Part shown: positions 3,949 through 18,750 of the stretch, in pieces
Position numbering within the stretch: position 1 is the first letter of the stretch
How the letters are laid out: the number at the start of each line of letters is the position of its first letter
Assembly: GCA_963675515.1 (NCBI GenBank)
Contig: OY776328.1
Coordinates: 2,280,001-2,312,000, forward strand
DNA: 32,000 nt
Reading direction: 5' to 3'
Origin: Coprobacillaceae bacterium
GTDB taxonomy: Bacteria; Bacillota_I; Bacilli_A; Erysipelotrichales; Coprobacillaceae
Notes under the pieces: model-generated
What the model was told of the DNA's origin: nothing
What the model saw: the letters and a program-made list of their open reading frames with translations, nothing else
The model's database searches: none
Position numbers and translations under genes: made by a program

Positions 3949-4165
3949 AAAAAAACGCCTCCAAAAAGAGACGTTGTAAACGCGATACCACTCTACTTGC
4001 CACCAGTTGACCTGATGACCTCTTTCACTGATAAGGGCAGTTACCCGAAAGTTATACTTGATTTCCAACTTTCCTCTCCAAAATGCGCTTGGGATTATTT
4101 TTGCCGCTGACCTTCCACCATCGTCAGTTCGCTTGAGACCGCCATAACCTTACTCTTTTTTTCAA
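3949..4165 (-). promoter_or_regulatory. Second T-box leader (dipeptidase-argF unit), specifier read as CGC (Arg)
   Basis: It has the same architecture as the 1644-1862 leader and is near-identical from the specifier loop to the terminator. The specifier CGC is the complement of 4085-4087. The T-box AGAGTGGTATCGCG is the complement of 3981-3994. The terminator plus T-run lies at 3949-3975. Stem I distal sequences differ from copy 1 but keep their pairing. Confidence 0.85.
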
Positions 4166-4177
4166 CGAGTTACATAT

Positions 4178-6233: not shown

Positions 6234-6316
6234 GCGGGTGTGGCGAAATTGGCAGACGCACCAGACTTAGGATCTGGCGGGTAACCGTGGGGGTTCGAGT
6301 CCCTTCACCCGCACCA
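6234..6316 (+). tRNA. tRNA-Leu (TAG), class II with long variable arm
   Basis: Acceptor GCGGGTG/CACCCGC, anticodon loop CTTAGGA, variable arm CGGGTAACCGTG, T-loop GGTTCGAGTCC, encoded CCA. Confidence 0.95.
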
Positions 6317-6500
6317 AACTAAAAATAACGGCTATTTATGGCCGTTTTTTCTTATAATTTTATATACCCGATATCCGATTTTTCGAACATTTTATAAATT
6401 TAAGAGCTGTAATAACATTGTACGATGTTGTTTTTGAAATTAGCCATAATAGGTGAAGGACACAATTCCAAAATTAGAATTGTGTCCTTCACAGAAATAT
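6310..6500. repeat. Junction 0 (attL-like): core copy 0 (6310-6350) plus conserved left arm of cassette A (6351-about 6500)
   Basis: The core is cgcaccaaactaaaaataacggctatttatggccgtttttt. The left arm tatatacccgatatccgatttttcgaac... continues to a 14-bp-stem hairpin GAAGGACACAATTC/GAATTGTGTCCTTC (6455-6490). It aligns over about 190 nt with 13596-13786 and over about 90 nt with 10231-10320. Confidence 0.85.
6328..6351 (+). terminator. Intrinsic terminator of the tRNA operon
   Basis: Hairpin ACGGC-tatttatg-GCCGT followed by TTTTTT. Confidence 0.8.
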
Positions 6501-6570: not shown

Positions 6571-7350
6571 TTATAAGGACAGCCTGTATTGTACGGGTGT
6601 TTTGTAATTAAGGCTCCCATGCTTCCTTTTGTTGTTGAACCAGTTGACATAATCATACAGTTCCAATGACAATTCGTCGATACTGCGGAATTGTCGATTG
6701 AATGCGAATTCTGTTTTGAGTATTTTATACATTGATTCTGATACCGCGTTATCAATCGGTTTTCCTTTGGCACTCAACGATCTCTTGATTCCATGCAATG
6801 CCAATATCCCATCAATCATCTCGTTTTTGAACTCCGATCCTCGGTCTGAATGAAATATCTCGACATCACTGAGATCACTTTTTATATCGTTTAATGCCTT
6901 AATAACCAAGTTGGCGTCTTTGTTTTGACCACTAGATTTACCAACGATTTCACGATTGTACAAATCAATTATCAGACAAATATAGTTCCATTTTCCAGCC
7001 ACCTTGATGTAGGTCAAGTCGCTGGTTAAATATTGCATTGGCCGCTCTGCTTGGAATTTTCTATTGATCATATTTTCAATATCGTCATTATTTACTTTGC
7101 CATAATGCTTTGGTCGTTGCTTGATGGTGTATTTACTAATCAAGCCGTATTTGTCCATGATTTGAGCAATTTTTCTTCTGCTGGCAACCATGTTTAAATC
7201 ATCCAAGTCATCTTTTATCTTGCGTGTTCCATAATTCTTCTTGCTGTTTTTGAATGATTTTATTACTTCATCTTCAAGCTTCGAATCCACTTTACGCCCT
7301 TTGGGTTTGTAGTAGAGAGTTGCCCGAGAGATTTTCAAGACTTTGCACAT
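6571..7350 (-). CDS. IS3-family transposase OrfB (DDE domain), expressed as OrfAB fusion by -1 frameshift
   Basis: LTSDLTYIKV...IFHSDRGSEF...DNAVSES is an IS3 DDE pattern. The -1 frame stays open upstream of 7350 back to the slippery heptamer T TTA AAG (complement of 7422-7428) inside orfA, reading ...FKASGADNGTKRQVIFANKHKYSISAMCKVL. Confidence 0.9.
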   Translation of the reverse strand: MCKVLKISRATLYYKPKGRKVDSKLEDEVIKSFKNSKKNYGTRKIKDDLDDLNMVASRRKIAQIMDKYGLISKYTIKQRPKHYGKVNNDDIENMINRKFQAERPMQYLTSDLTYIKVAGKWNYICLIIDLYNREIVGKSSGQNKDANLVIKALNDIKSDLSDVEIFHSDRGSEFKNEMIDGILALHGIKRSLSAKGKPIDNAVSESMYKILKTEFAFNRQFRSIDELSLELYDYVNWFNNKRKHGSLNYKTPVQYRLSL

Positions 7351-7385
7351 AGCGCTGATAGAGTATTTGTGTTTATTGGCAAAGA

Positions 7386-7679
7386 TTACTTGTCTTTTCG
7401 TCCCATTATCAGCGCCGCTTGCTTTAAAATATCATTTTCCATCTTCAGTCGTTCGTTTTCTTTTTGGAGCTTGATAAGCGCCTTGTCATGATCTGATCGA
7501 TTGTCGGCTTCAGTAAACGAACCCGTGTCATTGAAGCGTTTAACCCATTTATTGAACGCTGAAGCTGTCAAATCGTATTCACGGATTATTTCCGCTCTGG
7601 GTTTCCCATTGTTGTAAAGTTGAACCATTTTGATTCTGAATTCATCGGTGTAAGTACGTTTAGGTCTGCGTTTTGTCAT
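7386..7679 (-). CDS. IS3-family transposase OrfA (HTH)
   Basis: MTKRRPKRTYTDEFRIKMVQLYNNGKPRAEIIREYDLTASAFNKWVKRF plus a leucine-zipper-like C-terminus. The start is set at the ATG (complement of 7677-7679) with a GGAGGATAT RBS. Confidence 0.9.
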   Translation of the reverse strand: MTKRRPKRTYTDEFRIKMVQLYNNGKPRAEIIREYDLTASAFNKWVKRFNDTGSFTEADNRSDHDKALIKLQKENERLKMENDILKQAALIMGRKDK

Positions 7680-8021
7680 TTTGAATATCCTCCACAAATT
7701 TAACAAGATTTTATCATGTCCTTATAATCTTGTCTAATTTATTGTAACCTATCCAATCAAATAAAAATAAACACACATACCGTTTTAGATCTCATAGTAG
7801 TTTAGATAACGGGAAGTTTATTAAAGCCTTTTGTACTGGTAGTATCTGCAATTTAAAAAGTGTGATATAATCGCCAATCAATATAATCTCTTGGTCATTT
7901 TATAGTATATCCAGATTTGGCATAAAGCACTATTACATTCACATCCAAAGCTATGTGACTGATTATCAAATTATTACCATAAGCTAAAAGACACGTCTAA
8001 AACAATTACAAATTCTTTATA

Positions 8022-9882: not shown

Positions 9883-10230
9883 TGATATTACCATTGATAT
9901 ACTAAATCCGGTTATTGAAAGAGAGAAGCACTCCCCACTACCCCGTTACGGGCAATAGCATTTCCCAGCTTATATACTGACTTGCTTGAGTCTAGTCGCA
10001 GTATGTGTGTCTTGTGGAATCACGGCCTTACTATTTCACCAAGATAGTTTTAAATGTAGGTTTTATCGCCATCATTTCAATGTTGCGAACCCATTTGGCT
10101 ATTCCAACTATTAATCAATAACCTATTCTATTTCCAATGATCTAAACGCAAAAAGTGTTGATTTTAATAATCAACACATGATTAATTACGATTAGAAAAT
10201 TGAAAATAGTTCGCATACGATGAAGCACTT
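9883..10230. repeat. Conserved non-coding right module, copy 1 (end of cassette A)
   Basis: By eye it is near-identical to 18125-18432 (a handful of substitutions apart from the last 18 nt). It is clearly homologous to 12649-12999. There are stops in all six frames and no ORF of 60 aa or more. Confidence 0.9.
10149..10177 (-). terminator. Minus-strand intrinsic terminator inside right module copy 1
   Basis: 9-bp stem GTGTTGATT/AATCAACAC with a 5-nt loop. On the minus strand it is followed by TTTTT. It is identical in all three module copies. Confidence 0.55.
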
Positions 10231-10320
10231 CGCACCATACTAACAACAACGGCTATTTATGGCCGTTTTTTTATTTTAACTTATATACCCGATATCCAAA
10301 TTGTTCGAACTTTTCATAAA
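10231..10320. repeat. Junction 1 (attP-like): core copy 1 (10231-10272) plus short left arm of cassette B
   Basis: The sequence is cgcaccatactaacaacaacggctatttatggccgttttttt followed by attttaacttatatacccgatatccaaattgttcgaacttttcataaa. The terminator hairpin is retained. Confidence 0.85.
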
Positions 10321-10325
10321 TACAA

Positions 10326-10357
10326 CCTAATAAAGAGCAAGGTTGTCCTTTATTAGG
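10326..10357 (-). terminator. Hairpin at the left end of cassette B (probable terminator of its minus-strand genes)
   Basis: 10-bp stem CCTAATAAAG/CTTTATTAGG with a 12-nt loop. A U-rich tract follows on the minus strand. It occupies the position held by the GAAGGACACAATT hairpin in cassettes A and C. Confidence 0.45.
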
Positions 10358-10499: not shown

Positions 10500-10727
10500 T
10501 CATTTGACATTTGTCATATAACATGAAAATCCAATTGCAAAAAAAGGCATTTCCTTATGTAATAATTTCATAATTTGATCATCGGTTAATGATGCTAACC
10601 ATGCATCGATAATGCTAACAATATAATTATTCTTACGTAAGGTTTCTGCCAAATATCCCATTCCAATTTTTTCTTCCGCTGTACGCTGTGAAACAGGTGC
10701 AACAGTACATAAAACTATTTTCCTCAT
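10500..10727 (-). pseudogene. B12-binding-domain radical SAM protein, N-terminal 75-codon fragment
   Basis: GGAGG RBS plus MRKIVLCTVAPVSQRTAEEKIGMGYLAETLRKNNYIVSIIDAWLASLTDDQIMKLL is a typical B12-binding rSAM N-terminus. It stops after 75 codons, and no CxxxCxxC core follows. Confidence 0.6.
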
Positions 10728-10765
10728 TTTCATCCTCCTTCCTGAACTGTCAAAAAAATACATTA

Positions 10766-11202
10766 CTATTTGATTCTTCTTATCATGTCTTTCATCCATT
10801 CAGGATACAATGGCGACTGCAAAATCTCTTTGGTAGTTAACCAAAAACATTCAGTATGTTCTTCACTTAAGGTGCATTGCCCTTCTGAACAACAGCACAG
10901 ATAAGTTACAGATAAGTTATTATTATCAATTGCGTTTTATCTGGTCGAATCGCTGAGTCAGCATGCAATAACTGTATATTGGTTATTATTAAATTTGTTT
11001 CTTCTCTAACTTCTCGTTCTAATGCTTCTTCTAATTTTTCTCCATATTCAAGTCTTCCTCCTGGAATATCAAACAAGTTCTCACAAGCATCTTCAAGATT
11101 TTCTTCAACAGATTTTTTTATTATCAAAATCTGTCCGTTTAAATTTTGAATAATTGCTTTTGTTGCTATCTTAAAATTTTGATTTCTATTATTATATATC
11201 AT
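10766..11202 (-). pseudogene. Nudix hydrolase inactivated by an 11-bp tandem duplication
   Basis: The Nudix box GGRLEYGEKLEEALEREVREETNL is present. acagataagtt is directly repeated at 10897-10907 and 10908-10918. Removing one copy restores a continuous frame ...IIITYLCCCSEGQCTLSEEHTECFWLTTKEILQSPLYPEWMKDMIRRIK ending at 10766. Confidence 0.8.
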
Positions 11203-12648: not shown

Positions 12649-12999
12649 TGATATTACCATTAATATAAAAAAACTGGTCATTGAACGAGAGAAGCACTCT
12701 CCACTACTTAATAAGCAATTGCATCTCAGCTAATACGTTGACTTGCCTGCGACAGTACGATCACTGCTCTGACTCAGTCGCAACGTGTGTATCTTAGAAG
12801 TTTCAGCCCTACTACCTTGCCACGATAGTTTTAAACGTAGGTTTTATCGCCATTTATTTTATGTTGCGAACCCATTTGGCTATTCCAACTGTTAATCAAT
12901 AACCTATTATATTTTCAATGATCTAAACGCAAAAAGTGTTGATTTTAATAATCAACACATCATCAATCACGATTAGAAAATTGAAAATAGTTCGACAAC
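12649..12999. repeat. Conserved non-coding right module, copy 2 (end of cassette B), split by an IS remnant; its last 12 nt, following the 6-bp target duplication (13578-13583), are at 13584-13595
   Basis: The right two-thirds (12826-12999) is nearly identical to copies 1 and 3. The left third is diverged, with substitutions and a roughly 21-nt insertion (gcgacagtacgatcactgctc) that can form its own small hairpin. Confidence 0.9.
12930..12958 (-). terminator. Minus-strand intrinsic terminator inside right module copy 2
   Basis: It has the same GTGTTGATT/AATCAACAC hairpin and T-run as copy 1. Confidence 0.55.
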
Positions 13000-13577
13000 T
13001 GAGTATTCCGGCAGTTCAGAGCCACCTTGTCCGGAGTTGAGAGCCACTATGTCCGCCCCCTTAGAGCCATAAGTATAATTTAATAATTGCCACTCACGGA
13101 ACCACCTCTTCAGTAGTAAAATTGAAGCGTAGCCATTGTTCTACCATGCAACTACTAAGTAGGTGGTTTTTATACGAGAAATCAAAAAAATTCTTTAGAC
13201 GCGTTTTAAAATTGAAAGTCATCGATCCATTGTTTCAGCGCTGCATGTATCAAGAATACTGTCAGATATCCTTGAAATAATGGAGTCTAGGTGTAATAGG
13301 TACTCAACTATACTGTGCAGTCAATGTTAACCAGAGGGTTGGTATCAACGCTTGGGTGAAGATCCCGTTGCAAATGCAATACTTGATAGGATTATTAACA
13401 GTTCATATAACATCTTGTTACAAGATTCATCTATGAGGTAAGAATACTCAAAAATCAAATGATTATCGGTGAACCAATCATTGCTGGCTCTCGTTAATGG
13501 ACACCCCGGCTCTATAAAGCGGACAAAGGTGGCTCTAAACGAATGGACAGGGTGGCTCCGCCACACCGGAATATTCA
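13000..13577 (+). mobile_element. IS21-family element, internally deleted remnant (578 bp)
   Basis: - The ends are TGAGTATTCCGG... and ...CCGGAATATTCA.
- Both ends carry doubled subterminal repeats GAGCCACCNTGTCC, the multi-repeat ends typical of IS21.
- A 6-bp target duplication GACAAC lies at 12994-12999 and 13578-13583. The uninterrupted module copy 3 has a single GACAAC.
- Internally, only a tail reading WYQRLGEDPVANAILDRIINSSYNILLQDSSMR survives (about 13342-13443). It resembles the C-terminus of IstB-type helper ATPases. Confidence 0.75.
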
Positions 13578-13595
13578 GACAACGAGTAACCATAT

Positions 13596-13786
13596 CGCAC
13601 CAAACTAAAATCAACGGCTATTTAAAGCCGTTTTTTGCTTTCAATTTATATACCCGATATCCAAATTTTTCGAACTTTTTATTAATATTAAGCCTGTCAT
13701 AACATTGTATATTGTTCAAGTTTGAAACAATATATAATTGGTTAAGGACACAATTTCAATTAGAATTGTGTCCTTCATACAAATAT
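13596..13786. repeat. Junction 2 (attP-like): core copy 2 (13596-13636) plus long left arm of cassette C
   Basis: The sequence is cgcaccaaactaaaatcaacggctatttaaagccgtttttt followed by gctttcaatttatatacccgatatccaaatttttcgaac... It ends in the AAGGACACAATT/AATTGTGTCCTT hairpin (13744-13775). The terminator stem keeps its pairing through a compensating change (ACGGCT/AGCCGT). Confidence 0.85.
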
Positions 13787-14071
13787 TTAATTTAGTTTTC
13801 TATCTCTCCAAAGCGTAATAGCATTCAAAGTCAAGAAAACGAGCATAGTTAACAAAAACACGAGATAATATGATCTATTTTCATTAGTGGATGTTATCAT
13901 ACTAGTATCAATGTTCATAATATCAACTATTAAATAAATCATTATTAGAAGAATTCCAGAGAAAACGACAATTCTAGCGTGCAATAATTTTGCTATCTTC
14001 CCGAAAATTCTAAAAAAATCAAAAATTATCACTAAAATCAAAATGCATTCAACAAGATAAAATAATTCCAT
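13787..14071 (-). CDS. Hypothetical small membrane protein (94 aa, about 3 TM)
   Basis: The sequence is strongly hydrophobic. The RBS is weak. It is followed by the left-arm hairpin. Confidence 0.45.
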   Translation of the reverse strand: MELFYLVECILILVIIFDFFRIFGKIAKLLHARIVVFSGILLIMIYLIVDIMNIDTSMITSTNENRSYYLVFLLTMLVFLTLNAITLWRDRKLN

Positions 14072-14514: not shown

Positions 14515-15114
14515 TTAAGAATATCTTACTATTGTATGAGTATAAGCTACACCAACCGGAATTAAAAAAGGTATTCCTTGAACATTAATTCTATCACTAT
14601 ATCCAACTGTAGGATACGCTGCTTCTCCATTTATTAGATTGGTATCCACATATGAATGAATCCCAATATTCGGAAAATCAAAAGTTAACCGATATTCGTA
14701 TCCTTTAATCAGTTTTTCTTGTGGTGAAATTATCTTTTCGATTTTATTTGATGAGATTAATAATATCCCGTCTACATTAAACAATTCAAGTCTCTCTTCA
14801 CTTTGATTATATGTGATTGCGTTATAAAATTCATCCAACAAAAATATTTTTTCCAATTGACCCTTCGCATTGATTATTCCTAAGTATGATACTTCTCCTG
14901 TGCCGGTGTAATTCATCGAATTAGAATCATGTAATAACACATATGAAGTTTCAAAATGAAAGTTTCCAGATGAAAATTCAGACAATTCATTTTGAGTAAG
15001 TTTTCGATTATTATCAACAATTTGGTATGTCTTATATTCTTTCACTGCGAAGTACAAACAAAACGCTAACATTATCGAACATACGACCACTAACGACGTT
15101 TTAATCACTTTCAT
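14515..15114 (-). CDS. Hypothetical protein with N-terminal membrane anchor/signal (199 aa)
   Basis: MKVIKTSLVVVCSIMLAFCLYFAV is a TM or signal segment. Its ATG overlaps the upstream stop (TAATG at 15114), indicating translational coupling. I recognise no family. Confidence 0.6.
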   Translation of the reverse strand: MKVIKTSLVVVCSIMLAFCLYFAVKEYKTYQIVDNNRKLTQNELSEFSSGNFHFETSYVLLHDSNSMNYTGTGEVSYLGIINAKGQLEKIFLLDEFYNAITYNQSEERLELFNVDGILLISSNKIEKIISPQEKLIKGYEYRLTFDFPNIGIHSYVDTNLINGEAAYPTVGYSDRINVQGIPFLIPVGVAYTHTIVRYS

Positions 15115-15683
15115 TATCGATATACCGGAACAAACCTTTCAGCCGTTATCTGTATGGTTGAGAAGTAATAGGTATATTGATACTCACCGGTATAGTTGTC
15201 ATACACATCTGCACGATAGTATTTCCAATTGAAATCAGTATACACCCTCACTTTAGAATCCCTATTTTGATCAACGGATATTGAATAACCAAAATTTGTA
15301 CTCGTGGTATTAGAGACAGCTAGTGTTCCAGATACAGTTCCATATGTAATAGTAAATGATACCCCCACATTCACAGTCGAAGAAGTATTGAAGTAATAAT
15401 GATCAACCCGTCTCCAGACAGACGTTGATGGATGATATCCATTGTCATACCAACTTTTATATCCACTTGACAATAGAGTTGTAATAGAATGATAACTTGA
15501 CATCTCACTATAATCTTCAGGCATACTCATTGAAACTAAGTCGCCTTCTTTGTCATACGTTATGAAATTGGATGTTGACAATTCATTTGATGTATTCTCA
15601 ACAGCGCTGACCGAATCACACTGGAGTAGACAAAAATTAAACACAAGCAAAAAAACCACTAATATCTTTGTAAGCTTATTCAT
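15114..15683 (-). CDS. Hypothetical secreted protein (189 aa), Tyr/Ser/Thr-rich beta-type C-terminal half
   Basis: The start is set at MNKLTKILVVFLLVFNFCLLQCDSVSA (signal peptide) with an AAAGGAGA RBS. I recognise no family. Confidence 0.6.
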   Translation of the reverse strand: MNKLTKILVVFLLVFNFCLLQCDSVSAVENTSNELSTSNFITYDKEGDLVSMSMPEDYSEMSSYHSITTLLSSGYKSWYDNGYHPSTSVWRRVDHYYFNTSSTVNVGVSFTITYGTVSGTLAVSNTTSTNFGYSISVDQNRDSKVRVYTDFNWKYYRADVYDNYTGEYQYTYYFSTIQITAERFVPVYR

Positions 15684-15849
15684 AATTATCTCCTTTAGTA
15701 CCAAGGTTCACTGTGCATTGAAAAATAAATTATTACACCTTGAAATACTAATATATCTAATCAAATTTTGTAATTACTCGTTCATTGATTATTAATTGTA
15801 AGTTTGTGAAGTTATCAAGAGAATGTATGAAGCGTGTTACAAACACACT

Positions 15850-16461
15850 TTATTCACTATAGTAATACTCGGTATATAGAACTATGTTTCCATATCTTGA
15901 AGATCCATAGTATAAATCCGCAGTATACCTAACTGCCCCTGTGCGACCTCCATCAAGATATGAATACTTCGGGCTACTTATGTTGCTCAACCATGCATCA
16001 GCTATATAGCACGCAAGCTTATAATTTATTTGAGAATTTCGCATATAACTTATTTGGGTACCTGAAACGTTATAAGTTGTTGTAATAGAAAAGTATGTTG
16101 CCATGCCCCAAATATCTTTCGTTTTTGTTTTTGTAACTGTCGTTGCAGTAGCAGTTGCGGTTGCGGTTGCAAGCGATTGGAGTGTAAATAATTCAAAATC
16201 TACCGAATCTCTCAAACTGATGTAGTCAATTAGCTCCCTTTGTTGTTGAGCGACTTGACGGGTTATATTAATATAATCATCAAGTGAAATTTCCGATTCA
16301 TCGATAGGGAGAAATGTCATATCGACACCAAATTCTCCAACAATTTGATTAAAAGCTTCCTCGTAACTAACCATCTTAAGCGAACTTGATTCAGCATATA
16401 CATCAATATTAAACCCGAACATAATTGTAAAAAGTACTACAATACTAACTAATTTTTTCAT
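15850..16461 (-). CDS. Hypothetical secreted protein (203 aa)
   Basis: GAGGGGG RBS and signal peptide MKKLVSIVVLFTIMFGFNIDVYA. It has a central ATATATATATTVTKTKTK linker and a Tyr-rich C-terminal domain (YTADLYYGSSRYGNIVLYTEYYY) that loosely resembles the C-terminus of the 15114-15683 product. Confidence 0.6.
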   Translation of the reverse strand: MKKLVSIVVLFTIMFGFNIDVYAESSSLKMVSYEEAFNQIVGEFGVDMTFLPIDESEISLDDYINITRQVAQQQRELIDYISLRDSVDFELFTLQSLATATATATATTVTKTKTKDIWGMATYFSITTTYNVSGTQISYMRNSQINYKLACYIADAWLSNISSPKYSYLDGGRTGAVRYTADLYYGSSRYGNIVLYTEYYYSE

Positions 16462-18099: not shown

Positions 18100-18432
18100 T
18101 AAAAAAGAATTTGGTTACCGAAAAGGAGAAGTACTCCTCACTACCCCGTTAAGGGCAATAGCATTTCCCAGCTTATATACTGACTTGCTTGAGTCTAGTC
18201 GCAGTATGTGTGTCTTGCGGAATCACGGCCTTACTATTTCACCAAGATAGTTTAAATGTAGGTTTTATCGCCATCATTTCAATGTTGCGAACCCATTTGG
18301 CTATTCCAACTGTTAATCAATAACCTATTCAATTTTCAATGATCTAAACGCAAAAAGTGTTGATTTTAATAATCAACACATCATTAATTACGATTAGAAA
18401 ATTGAAAATAGTTCGACAACGAGTAACCATAT
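18100..18432. repeat. Conserved non-coding right module, copy 3 (end of cassette C), uninterrupted
   Basis: See copies 1 and 2. It contains TTTCAATG twice (18277-84 and 18334-41) and an inverted near-copy AATTGAAAA (about 18401-18409). The tail is gttcgacaacgagtaaccat. Confidence 0.9.
18350..18379 (-). terminator. Minus-strand intrinsic terminator inside right module copy 3
   Basis: GTGTTGATT (18357-65) / AATCAACAC (18371-79), with a T-run on the minus strand (A-run 18352-56). Confidence 0.55.
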
Positions 18433-18473
18433 CGCACCATACTAACAACAACGGCTTTAACGGCCGTTTTTTT
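18433..18473. repeat. Junction 3 (attR-like): core copy 3, followed by unrelated flank
   Basis: The sequence is cgcaccatactaacaacaacggctttaacggccgttttttt. After the T-run it reads gtgcccttttttcattgtggc, which has no similarity to the left arms. Confidence 0.85.
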
Positions 18474-18750
18474 GTGCCCTTTTTTCATTGTGGCAACAAT
18501 TTGGGAACATTTTTCAAAATTAGATAATTCGCCGTTTATATTTATTATGTAGATGTCAAAGAATAATAATACGAATCTGAATCAATGATAAGATTACCTG
18601 ATTCAATCCAGAATATGACCAAACAATAAATGAGTTTATAGATAATACATCTTGTAAACAAGTCAGCATTTTTACTGGCATAAATGGAGCAATGGAGTCA
18701 ACATTAAATATGAATATGATTATTGTGAAACAAGTCATGTTCAACAAATT

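Follow-up and report, generated by a model that had tools for sequence, protein, structure and literature searches.

Tandem cassettes without a recombinase at a tRNA-Leu gene share a long, partly folded non-coding end

Introduction

What moves a genomic cassette that has no recombinase of its own? The question is raised by a 12-kb array in a Coprobacillaceae bacterium (GenBank assembly GCA_963675515.1), which lies within positions 2,280,001 to 2,312,000 of contig OY776328.1; this whole stretch of 32,000 nucleotides is the window, and positions are counted from its first letter. Three cassettes with unrelated genes stand there in tandem behind a tRNA-Leu(UAG) gene, and each ends on the right in a copy of one non-coding block of about 335 nt, which we call the module. 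An earlier note, made from the letters alone, had offered two explanations for this block, a structured RNA or an unusually long recombination arm. Both parts of that alternative have gained ground and neither is proven: the position of the module beside a tRNA-derived core speaks for an arm, and covariation speaks for folding in its distal half. In our best reading, the module, the core and a short second arm form an attP-type attachment site of about 480 bp, and this site is the sole conserved backbone of a family of recombinase-less islands at the 3' end and terminator of tRNA-Leu(UAG).

Results

How similar are the three copies of the module, and could they encode a protein? All three were recovered where the earlier note had placed them by a repeat finder, MAFFT, blastn and nhmmer alike (Table 1). 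Copies 1 and 3 are indeed near-identical (93% over 363 nt) although their cassettes have no genes in common; copies 1 and 2 share 77% identity over 375 nt, and copies 2 and 3 share 87% over about 240 nt. An alignment of the three copies with the insertion in copy 2 removed (alignment A2) divides the module into a distal half (columns 22-190) and a core-proximal half (columns 191-346). In the distal half copy 2 is 58-62% identical to copies 1 and 3, which are 94% identical to each other, whereas in the core-proximal half every pair is 93-97% identical, so that the described divergence of copy 2 away from the core, and its near-identity toward it, hold up by block. A coding region is ruled out by three observations: all six frames, in which stops had been noted before, contain three or more of them in every copy, substitutions among the copies are spread over the codon phases (17/15/20) without a codon phase, and indels of 1 nt and 2 nt between copies shift the frame. 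The figure of 13 codons given for the longest recurrent open reading frame (ORF) was inexact, since a minus-strand 35-codon TTG-started ORF recurs in copies 1 and 3; it begins inside the tRNA-derived core, lacks a Shine-Dalgarno sequence and is disrupted in copy 2. Spurious ORFs within the module have no entry in the protein collection.

How is the module tied to the array? The window contains a cluster of six tRNA genes, the last of which is tRNA-Leu(UAG), followed by its own terminator. The last 7 nt of this gene (CGCACCA) and the terminator are repeated at 6310, 10231, 13596 and 18433, and the cores at the latter three positions each lie directly right of one module copy. The tRNA-Leu gene is intact despite the array at its 3' end; this combination, a direct repeat of a tRNA 3' end with a regenerated tRNA gene, is that of an attP-type site. 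To the right of the first three cores runs a conserved stretch of about 65 nt, the P' arm, and the conserved stretch is about 100 nt longer in cassettes 1 and 3, where it includes a 15-bp hairpin; the sequence right of the fourth core differs from the P' arm. The layout is B-core-P', cassette 1, P-core-P', cassette 2, P-core-P', cassette 3, P-core-B', and with the module as the P side this is the pattern of repeated site-specific integration at one attB. The boundaries of the module match within about 45 nt across the three unrelated cassettes, which argues for a unit under selection and not for random deletion end-points. The position of the module, its linkage to the core and the agreement of its boundaries among unrelated cassettes point to it as the cis-acting P-side end of an attP-type site, and we consider it very probable that it is the att-linked cis end of these elements.

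The array is an insertion. Its GC content is about 31% and that of both flanks is 42-45%, and a related 2.6-Mb genome (L004; DegV 64% identical) has the tRNA cluster, the terminator and a B'-like flank without the 12-kb array, that is, an unoccupied attB. Relatives were anchored through flanking genes: DegV led to L001, L003 and L004, and a major facilitator superfamily (MFS) gene led to L002 and L031, in which synteny is broken and which are uninformative for the array. By these matches the host belongs to the Coprobacillaceae/Erysipelotrichaceae or stands close to them. In L001, a metagenome-assembled genome of another species (DegV 77% identical), the P' arm follows directly after tRNA-Leu at 83% identity over 125 nt, and the contig then ends. 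Cluster look-ups of the cassette proteins showed that cassette 3 alone recurs elsewhere; in unrelated samples, seven short Logan/ENA contigs encode its proteins at >=90% identity. All but one of them stop 50-124 nt into the module, as expected because assemblies fail at a multi-copy repeat; the exception (L006) stops before it. Together with the P' arm of L001, the cassette 3 contigs indicate that the element family exists outside this genome. On a Logan contig (L022, positions 1-300; SRR22315505), which carries a diverged cassette 3, the module-side flank is swapped for unrelated sequence; this flank carries TGAGTGACCA...TGGTCACT-type inverted repeats and may be another small insertion element.

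These relatives also bear on the simplest account of the repeats, a local segmental duplication of no consequence for mobility. The 93% identity of copies 1 and 3 would suit it. Against it, the cassettes between the copies are unrelated, every copy is linked to a tRNA-derived core, P' arms stand at the junctions, several metagenome samples that are unrelated show the cassette joined to the module in the same way, and the P' arm is found in another species; we give this account almost no weight.

The search for homologues of the module itself remained at the three copies. The collection that the earlier note had called for could not be enlarged by nhmmer over 281 kb of retrieved loci, which gave no further copy, or by blastn, which was likewise empty. 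The module had no blastn match in phages or in 72,556 plasmids. Exact patterns (a 21-mer, a 26-mer and a 17-mer of the module, as well as the P' arm) gave nothing real in viral contigs, where 16/17-mer matches were chance, and pattern scans of representative genomes and JGI metagenomes were equally empty. A concatenated query of eight cassette proteins had no match in the protein collection. Nor did phages, plasmids, viral contigs, metagenome contigs or representative genomes yield a related autonomous element.

What do the cassettes carry? All of their ORFs lie on the minus strand and are unrelated from cassette to cassette. Cassette 1 holds an IS3 element, a PurM-like protein and a helix-turn-helix (HTH) protein; cassette 2 a Nudix fragment, a B12-radical-SAM fragment and one unknown protein; and cassette 3 three unknown secreted proteins, a winged-helix regulator and a membrane protein. 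Pfam finds no integrase, recombinase, relaxase or transfer gene among the ORFs of the three cassettes, and the sole protein with an rve domain is the IS3 transposase, whose integrase core is of the DDE transposase type. The cassettes therefore depend, we propose, on an integrase acting in trans, as in the definition of cis-mobilizable elements (CIMEs), which keep attL and attR while genes for integration and transfer are absent (PMC5704250); this is the state in which we find the array. In cassette 2 the truncations (10500-11202) leave 98 of 141 aa of the Nudix protein and 99 of 523 aa of the B12-radical-SAM protein.

Where would an integrase cross over? We compared the four cores mutually and with L001 and L004. 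Polymorphisms left of AACGGCT (for example, CATACTAACAAC vs CAAACTAAAATC) co-segregate with the type of module, and those on its right, in the terminator loop and right stem, co-segregate with the P' or B' side. AACGGCT itself (18450-18456), the left stem of the tRNA terminator, is the sole segment common to all sites between the two linkage groups. To judge from these four junctions it is a candidate crossover, and its length of 7 bp fits the overlap region of a tyrosine recombinase. Arm-type motifs are less clear. The earlier note had pointed to a recurring motif, TTTCAATG, as a possible arm-type site; its first occurrence reads TTTTATG in copy 2, so it is not kept in all copies and is for this reason weak as an arm-type site. 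Similarly, AGTTCG/CGAACT is inverted across the core but is not kept at all junctions.

Does the distal half, in which copy 2 has diverged, keep a structure? The consensus fold that RNAalifold gives for the three copies in alignment A2 contains a long-range closing helix (helix 1) around about 215 nt, which hold helices A to D and two invariant hairpins; all changes in helix 1 are wobble-compatible only. Where the eye had seen no convincing covariation, computation finds nine compensatory pairs, two in helix A, one in helix B, four in helix C (three of them consecutive) and two in helix D, all in the diverged distal part. Sliding the partners by 1-3 columns leaves 0-2 compensatory pairs, and shuffles scored against the fixed structure have 3.4 +/- 1.4, none of 500 reaching nine. 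Because the structure was derived from the same sequences, the whole prediction was re-run on two nulls. Column shuffles within conservation classes gave a mean of 2.9 compensatory pairs (p = 0.0025), and random re-placement of the 37 substitutions of copy 2 averaged 2.2 and reached at most 7 (p < 0.0025). For the closed domain the consensus-fold z is -4.0 (plus strand) and -4.6 (minus strand), covariation has p < 0.004 on both strands, and it is thus statistically supported, on three sequences only. The 21-nt insertion that the earlier note had reported in copy 2 (12750-12770) is real, and falls in the apical loop of a conserved hairpin, helix C. The compensatory pairs and the consensus-fold z lead us to propose that the module is more than a protein-binding arm, its distal half being kept, as modelled here, as a fold.

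These results weigh on a second account, in which the module is a plain double-stranded DNA arm on decayed elements, or CIME remnants, and its hairpins and their compensatory changes are by-products of terminators, quasi-palindrome correction or chance. The position beside the core and the rise of conservation toward it fit this account, as do the ordinary thermodynamics of the single hairpins, the sample of only three copies, and the decay of the cassettes, which is visible in the IS3 insertion, the insertion in copy 2 and the truncated Nudix and radical-SAM genes. The covariation, which exceeds both nulls (p ~0.0025 and < 0.0025) as well as the slid-partner controls, argues against it, and the compensatory changes are spread over four separate helices. 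Furthermore, 335 nt is long for a single arm, the left boundary of the module is common to unrelated cassettes, and the core-proximal half (93-97%) is conserved above the core itself (82-92%). We regard a plain arm as improbable.

Is the module transcribed, and from which strand? The conserved 9-bp hairpin and T-run that had been read as a minus-strand terminator is called as a terminator-like site in all three copies (10155-10177 in copy 1, 12936-12958 in copy 2; Table 1 for copy 3). Its stem is the top of a palindrome of about 80 nt, and the tRNA terminator comes next; in each copy these two, on the minus and the plus strand respectively, are convergent on the core-proximal 70 nt. A promoter scan finds no conserved promoter in or beside any copy on either strand; the -10-like boxes once proposed as a plus-strand promoter are not called in any copy, and instead of a promoter and a terminator bracketing the module on one strand there are terminators on both strands only. 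A candidate promoter reading from the P' arm into the core, TTCGAA-N16-TATATA, was rejected, as it matches 3/6 only at -35 and is missed by the scan. Cassette 3 has its own promoter outside the module, a perfect TTGACA-16-TATAAT at 17880-17853.

The pattern of base changes gives mixed signals about the strand. Single-sided changes that pair solely as G.U number nine on the minus strand vs two on the plus strand (two-sided binomial ~0.07); three of the nine are in helix 1, two are intermediate haplotypes of helix A, including a Logan variant, and four are others. The consensus has four broken pairs on the minus strand vs nine on the plus strand. In contrast, the plus strand is the only one on which the basal stem of helix C forms, and its G.T pairs there are invariant. 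A plus-strand transcript of about 360-390 nt, which the earlier note had thought conceivable, finds no support here; the wobble pattern leans toward the minus strand, and no promoter is conserved. The Rfam search that it had also recommended assigned no family to any copy and gave weak matches only, well below the gathering score (E-value thresholds to 5-10); over the window, Rfam 15 hits only T-box and tRNA.

A third account must be weighed here, namely that the module, or its closed domain of 215 nt, is the gene for a new structured RNA carried by each cassette. Such an RNA could be a minus-strand leader or small RNA upstream of the cargo, or a plus-strand RNA with its end at the tRNA-type terminator and an effect on the helper or on recombination. 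The nine compensatory pairs, the consensus-fold z of about -4 and the placement of the variable 21-nt insertion at a hairpin apex are what an RNA would leave behind, and a 9-bp long-range helix that closes a multi-helix junction is an arrangement classically seen in RNA. The 9 to 2 excess of changes that keep G.U on the minus strand, the strong terminators on both strands, and the position of all cargo genes on the minus strand, downstream of the module, point in the same direction. Yet no sigma-70-type promoter is conserved in or beside any copy on either strand, the minus-strand terminator comes before the domain and not after it, and the basal stem of helix C pairs well on the plus strand only, so that the strand signals conflict. 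Rfam has no match, and template switching in DNA quasi-palindromes also makes compensatory changes. We consider an RNA gene rather unlikely, though it is the main rival of our best reading.

The positions of the array and of the elements of the module are collected in Table 1.

Table 1. Features of the tRNA-Leu(UAG) array and of the module, by position in the window
Feature	Position	Strand	Remarks
Module copy 1	9883-10230	none assigned	right end of cassette 1; self-comparison
Module copy 2, main part	12649-12999	none assigned	right end of cassette 2; distal half diverged
Module copy 2, last 18 nt	13578-13595	none assigned	resumes after the 578-bp insertion
Module copy 3	18100-18432		right end of cassette 3
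tRNA-Leu(UAG), integration target	6234-6316	+	3' end and terminator, 6310-6351, form the first core
P' arm of cassette 1	6352-6410		TTATATACCCGATATC...TCGAAC; equivalents at 10272-10330 and 13637-13697
Core and P' arm, cassette 1/2 junction	10231-10330		with module copy 1, an attP-like P-core-P' site
Core and P' arm, cassette 2/3 junction	13596-13697		alignments, self-comparison
Core of copy 3	18433-18475	+	last 7 nt of tRNA-Leu(UAG) and terminator; alignments, terminator scan
B' chromosomal flank	18476-18530		common to related genome L004, which is without the array
MITE-like insertion, 578 bp, splitting copy 2	13000-13577		terminal inverted repeats TGAGTATTCCGG / CCGGAATATTCA; 6-bp target duplication GACAAC
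Closed multi-hairpin domain, copy 3	18113-18325	none assigned	RNAalifold consensus, pair counts
Helix 1, 9-bp long-range closing helix	18113-18121 with 18317-18325		GGTTATTGA with TCAATAACC
Helix A	18124-18138		RNAalifold consensus
Helix B	18144-18155		RNAalifold consensus
Helix C	18174-18210		RNAalifold consensus; apical loop holds the 21-nt insertion of copy 2
Helix D	18211-18249		RNAalifold consensus
Two invariant hairpins	18283-18310		RNAalifold consensus
Imperfect palindrome, about 80 nt	18330-18411		near-invariant in the three copies; inverted repeat, self-matches, consensus fold
Intrinsic-terminator-like site	18350-18379	-	9-bp stem GTGTTGATT/AATCAACAC, then TTTTT
Variable block, 16 nt	18416-18431		between palindrome and core; copies 2 and 3 the same, copy 1 differs at 50%

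Several smaller features of the att sites were observed in passing. In copy 1 only, the core-adjacent variable block GAAGCACTTCGCAC (10222-10235) approximately repeats the helix A region GAAGCACTCCCCAC (9925-9938); in copy 3 the equivalent block reads GTAACCATAT and shows complementarity to the distal start ATTTGGTTAC. The hairpin mentioned above, a perfect 15-bp inverted repeat GGTGAAGGACACAATT...AATTGTGTCCTTCAC, is found just inside the P' arm in cassettes 1 and 3 (6452-6492 and about 13740-13782) and probably terminates transcription of the minus-strand cargo; it is missing from cassette 2. The motif GGCAACATTTT occurs four times in the B' flank of L004, and two degenerate copies are present in the window (18490-18515); a similar GAAC(N)TTTT stands in the P' arms, at a distance of about 55 nt from the candidate crossover. 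At positions 8554-8810 of L004, two core-like terminators enclose a 117-nt mini-insert that may be a mini-remnant. The 578 bp within copy 2 have several subterminal GAGCCAC(C/T)nTGTCC repeats at both ends, and no match among plasmids or in Rfam; from its sequence we take this insertion to be a non-autonomous element resembling a miniature inverted-repeat transposable element (MITE).

Further observations concern the cargo and the neighbouring genes. The IS3-family element in cassette 1 (orfA/orfB, 6571-7706) has a transposase that is present in multiple copies in the source genome. The truncated genes of cassette 2 stem from a cluster of Nudix, B12-radical-SAM and nonribosomal peptide synthetase-like (NRPS-like) genes, which is found intact on many ENA and Logan contigs (L012-L021), all without the module. 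The secreted proteins of cassette 3 are encoded by three adjacent genes (14515-16461), each for a protein of about 200 aa with a signal peptide and without a Pfam family; one of them has an (Ala-Thr)n / (Thr-Lys)n low-complexity stretch. Of the 94-aa membrane protein encoded beside the P' arm in cassette 3 (13787-14071), the same genome contains a second copy at another place, with at least 90% identity, which hints at a further related cassette. Finally, two paralogous T-box leaders that are 86% identical lie on the minus strand at 1660-1870 and 3964-4174, one upstream of an aspartate-semialdehyde dehydrogenase gene and the other upstream of an M19 dipeptidase-like gene followed by an ornithine carbamoyltransferase-like (OTCase-like) gene.

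Discussion

Which known mobile elements does the array resemble? CIMEs and their tandem accretion have been documented in the Firmicutes, in the family of ICESt1 and ICESt3 (PMC5704250). Like CIMEs, the cassettes have attL and attR flanks, lack genes for integration and transfer, and form a tandem stack at the 3' end of a target gene (PMC5704250). CIMEs depend for their mobility on the integrase of another element, and we propose the same for the cassettes. They differ in that no related autonomous integrative and conjugative element (ICE), integrative and mobilizable element (IME) or prophage is known for them; in that their common non-coding ends with matching boundaries suggest a backbone that never was coding, and not three independent decays; and in an unusually long arm that is partly folded. 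The identical ends, which are non-coding only, the long arm and the retained distal fold suggest something beyond an ordinary decayed element. What is new here is the occurrence at a tRNA gene of CIME-like tandem islands with an unusually long, partly structured non-coding backbone. Stacking of this kind is shared with tycheposons and with the island arrays at ssrA, in which successive integrations at tRNA or transfer-messenger RNA (tmRNA) genes displace the older elements inward, with partial repeats of the tRNA remaining between them (bioRxiv 10.1101/2020.12.28.424599; PMC3146451). Those arrays differ from ours in that their elements usually have their own recombinase, and no conserved non-coding module of 335 nt has been described in them.

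Similarly, the site resembles a lambda-type attP in its long asymmetric and short arms around a core that duplicates a tRNA 3' end, in the regenerated tRNA gene, and in the structured, terminator-containing stretch of its long arm. In lambda the P arm of attP is about 150 bp long, with arm-type, Xis and integration host factor (IHF) sites, and the sib/tI RNA hairpin lies nearby; the attP of HP1 measures about 420 bp. Unlike these sites, the one described here has no integrase gene beside it and no clear arm-type repeats, and its crossover is apparently in the stem of the tRNA terminator, not within the tRNA. The integron gives a different comparison: like attC cassettes, ours form an array in one orientation with one structured repeat each and no recombinase of their own, and in part of the repeat structure is kept more than sequence. 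However, they are multi-gene cassettes with their own promoters, and their junction is a tRNA-derived core with long arms. An integron attC was rejected: there is no IntI/attI platform, and R''-L''/L'-R' boxes (RYYYAAC...GTTRRRY) are absent at the boundary; GTTAAGG and GTTACGG within the module are unconserved and lie away from it.

In the IS110 family, a structured non-coding bridge RNA is encoded at the end of the mobile element, beside the recombination site. The module, as a candidate structured element at an element's end that adjoins a recombination site, invites the idea of a new structured RNA (~215-370 nt) beside the att site that recruits or programmes a recombinase or helper in trans, in the manner of a bridge or omega RNA. 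If this were true, the RNA, and not a protein-binding arm, would define the family and its tRNA-Leu terminator target; we hold it to be a long shot. An IS110 system proper is excluded by the absence of a DEDD/IS110 recombinase from every cassette ORF, the 40-nt tRNA-derived direct repeats fit tyrosine-integrase sites and not IS110 cores, and no conserved loop complementary to the target was found in the module.

Islands whose sole mobility feature is an origin of transfer (oriT), termed iOriT, have been documented (bioRxiv 10.64898/2026.01.13.699239), and so has an IME with an oriT and a single-strand origin, ssoA, IMESag-rpsI (PMC5090054). Like these, and like the oriT and ssoA of pMV158, the module would be a small non-coding cis site whose overlapping hairpins act single-stranded (PMC5090054, PMC5863519). 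iOriT islands are defined by known or new oriT families, and the module is likened to them by description only. The 3' end of helix C reads (A/G)TGTG/T in all three copies, comparable to TAGTGTG/TTA of pMV158 (PMC5863519, PMC5090054), and has no plasmid similarity; the window contains no relaxase. Two other candidate matches, to the pMV158 double-strand origin (dso) nick motif (TACTACG vs CACTAC in the module) and to the ssoA CS-6 motif (TAGCGT vs TAGCAT/TTGCAT), were dropped as too short or unconserved.

How would such an element work? From the observations above we infer a trans-acting integrase, a crossover in the terminator stem and, most tentatively of all, a role for the distal hairpins. 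A tyrosine integrase and a directionality factor would be supplied in trans by a helper element outside the window. The integrase would recombine at the terminator stem, with AACGGCT as the candidate crossover and the module and the P' arm as its arms. Single cassettes or composites would be excised as circles that bear module, core and P' arm, and these circles would re-insert at attB or at any existing junction, giving an array like that observed. The near-invariant core-proximal half would combine arm functions with the minus-strand terminator, which together with the plus-strand tRNA terminator may shield the site and the cargo from outside transcription. The distal half, with its four hairpins and long-range helix, would have its role in cis, on the element once it is excised or transferred, for instance in helper-dependent transfer or as a complementary-strand origin. 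The absence of a conserved promoter inclines us toward a role of the distal half at the level of DNA; that its hairpins work as DNA rather than as RNA is nonetheless only a tentative suggestion.

Several points weigh against this proposal. A cognate tyrosine integrase or helper was not found within the window, and the P and P' arms have no clear repeated motif of the arm type conserved between them, ATTTGG[C/A]TAT being present in inverted orientation in the two arms at just two junctions. Full copies of the module number three only and amount in effect to two independent lineages. The single hairpins are no more stable than shuffles, whether folded as DNA or as RNA, and template switching in DNA quasi-palindromes can yield compensatory changes without selection on a transcript. 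Changes of the G.U wobble type, and likewise a long-range closing helix, characterise RNA at least as much as single-stranded DNA. Finally, the likeness between the 3' base of helix C, AGTATGTGTG/TCTT, and the MOBV1 nick region in pMV158, AAGTATAGTGTG/TTATAC (PMC5863519), covers about 11 nt, was noticed post hoc and is no more than a lead. Taken as a whole, the proposal of a cis-acting backbone of CIME-like cassettes that combines a long P-side arm, an insulating terminator and a folded-strand element stands, in our judgment, evenly balanced between right and wrong.

Genomic islands are mostly without a known means of moving. Here, three unrelated sets of cargo share only about 480 bp of non-coding DNA, with boundaries that match, so that whatever moves the cassettes must lie in that DNA. 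Should the folded domain serve as a signal for transfer or replication, the array would represent a minimal "hitcher" in the gut Erysipelotrichales and Coprobacillaceae, whose mobile elements are poorly known; if it is an RNA, it would be a new class of element-borne structured RNA. Under either reading, the module is a handle with which to search for further cassettes and for their helper.

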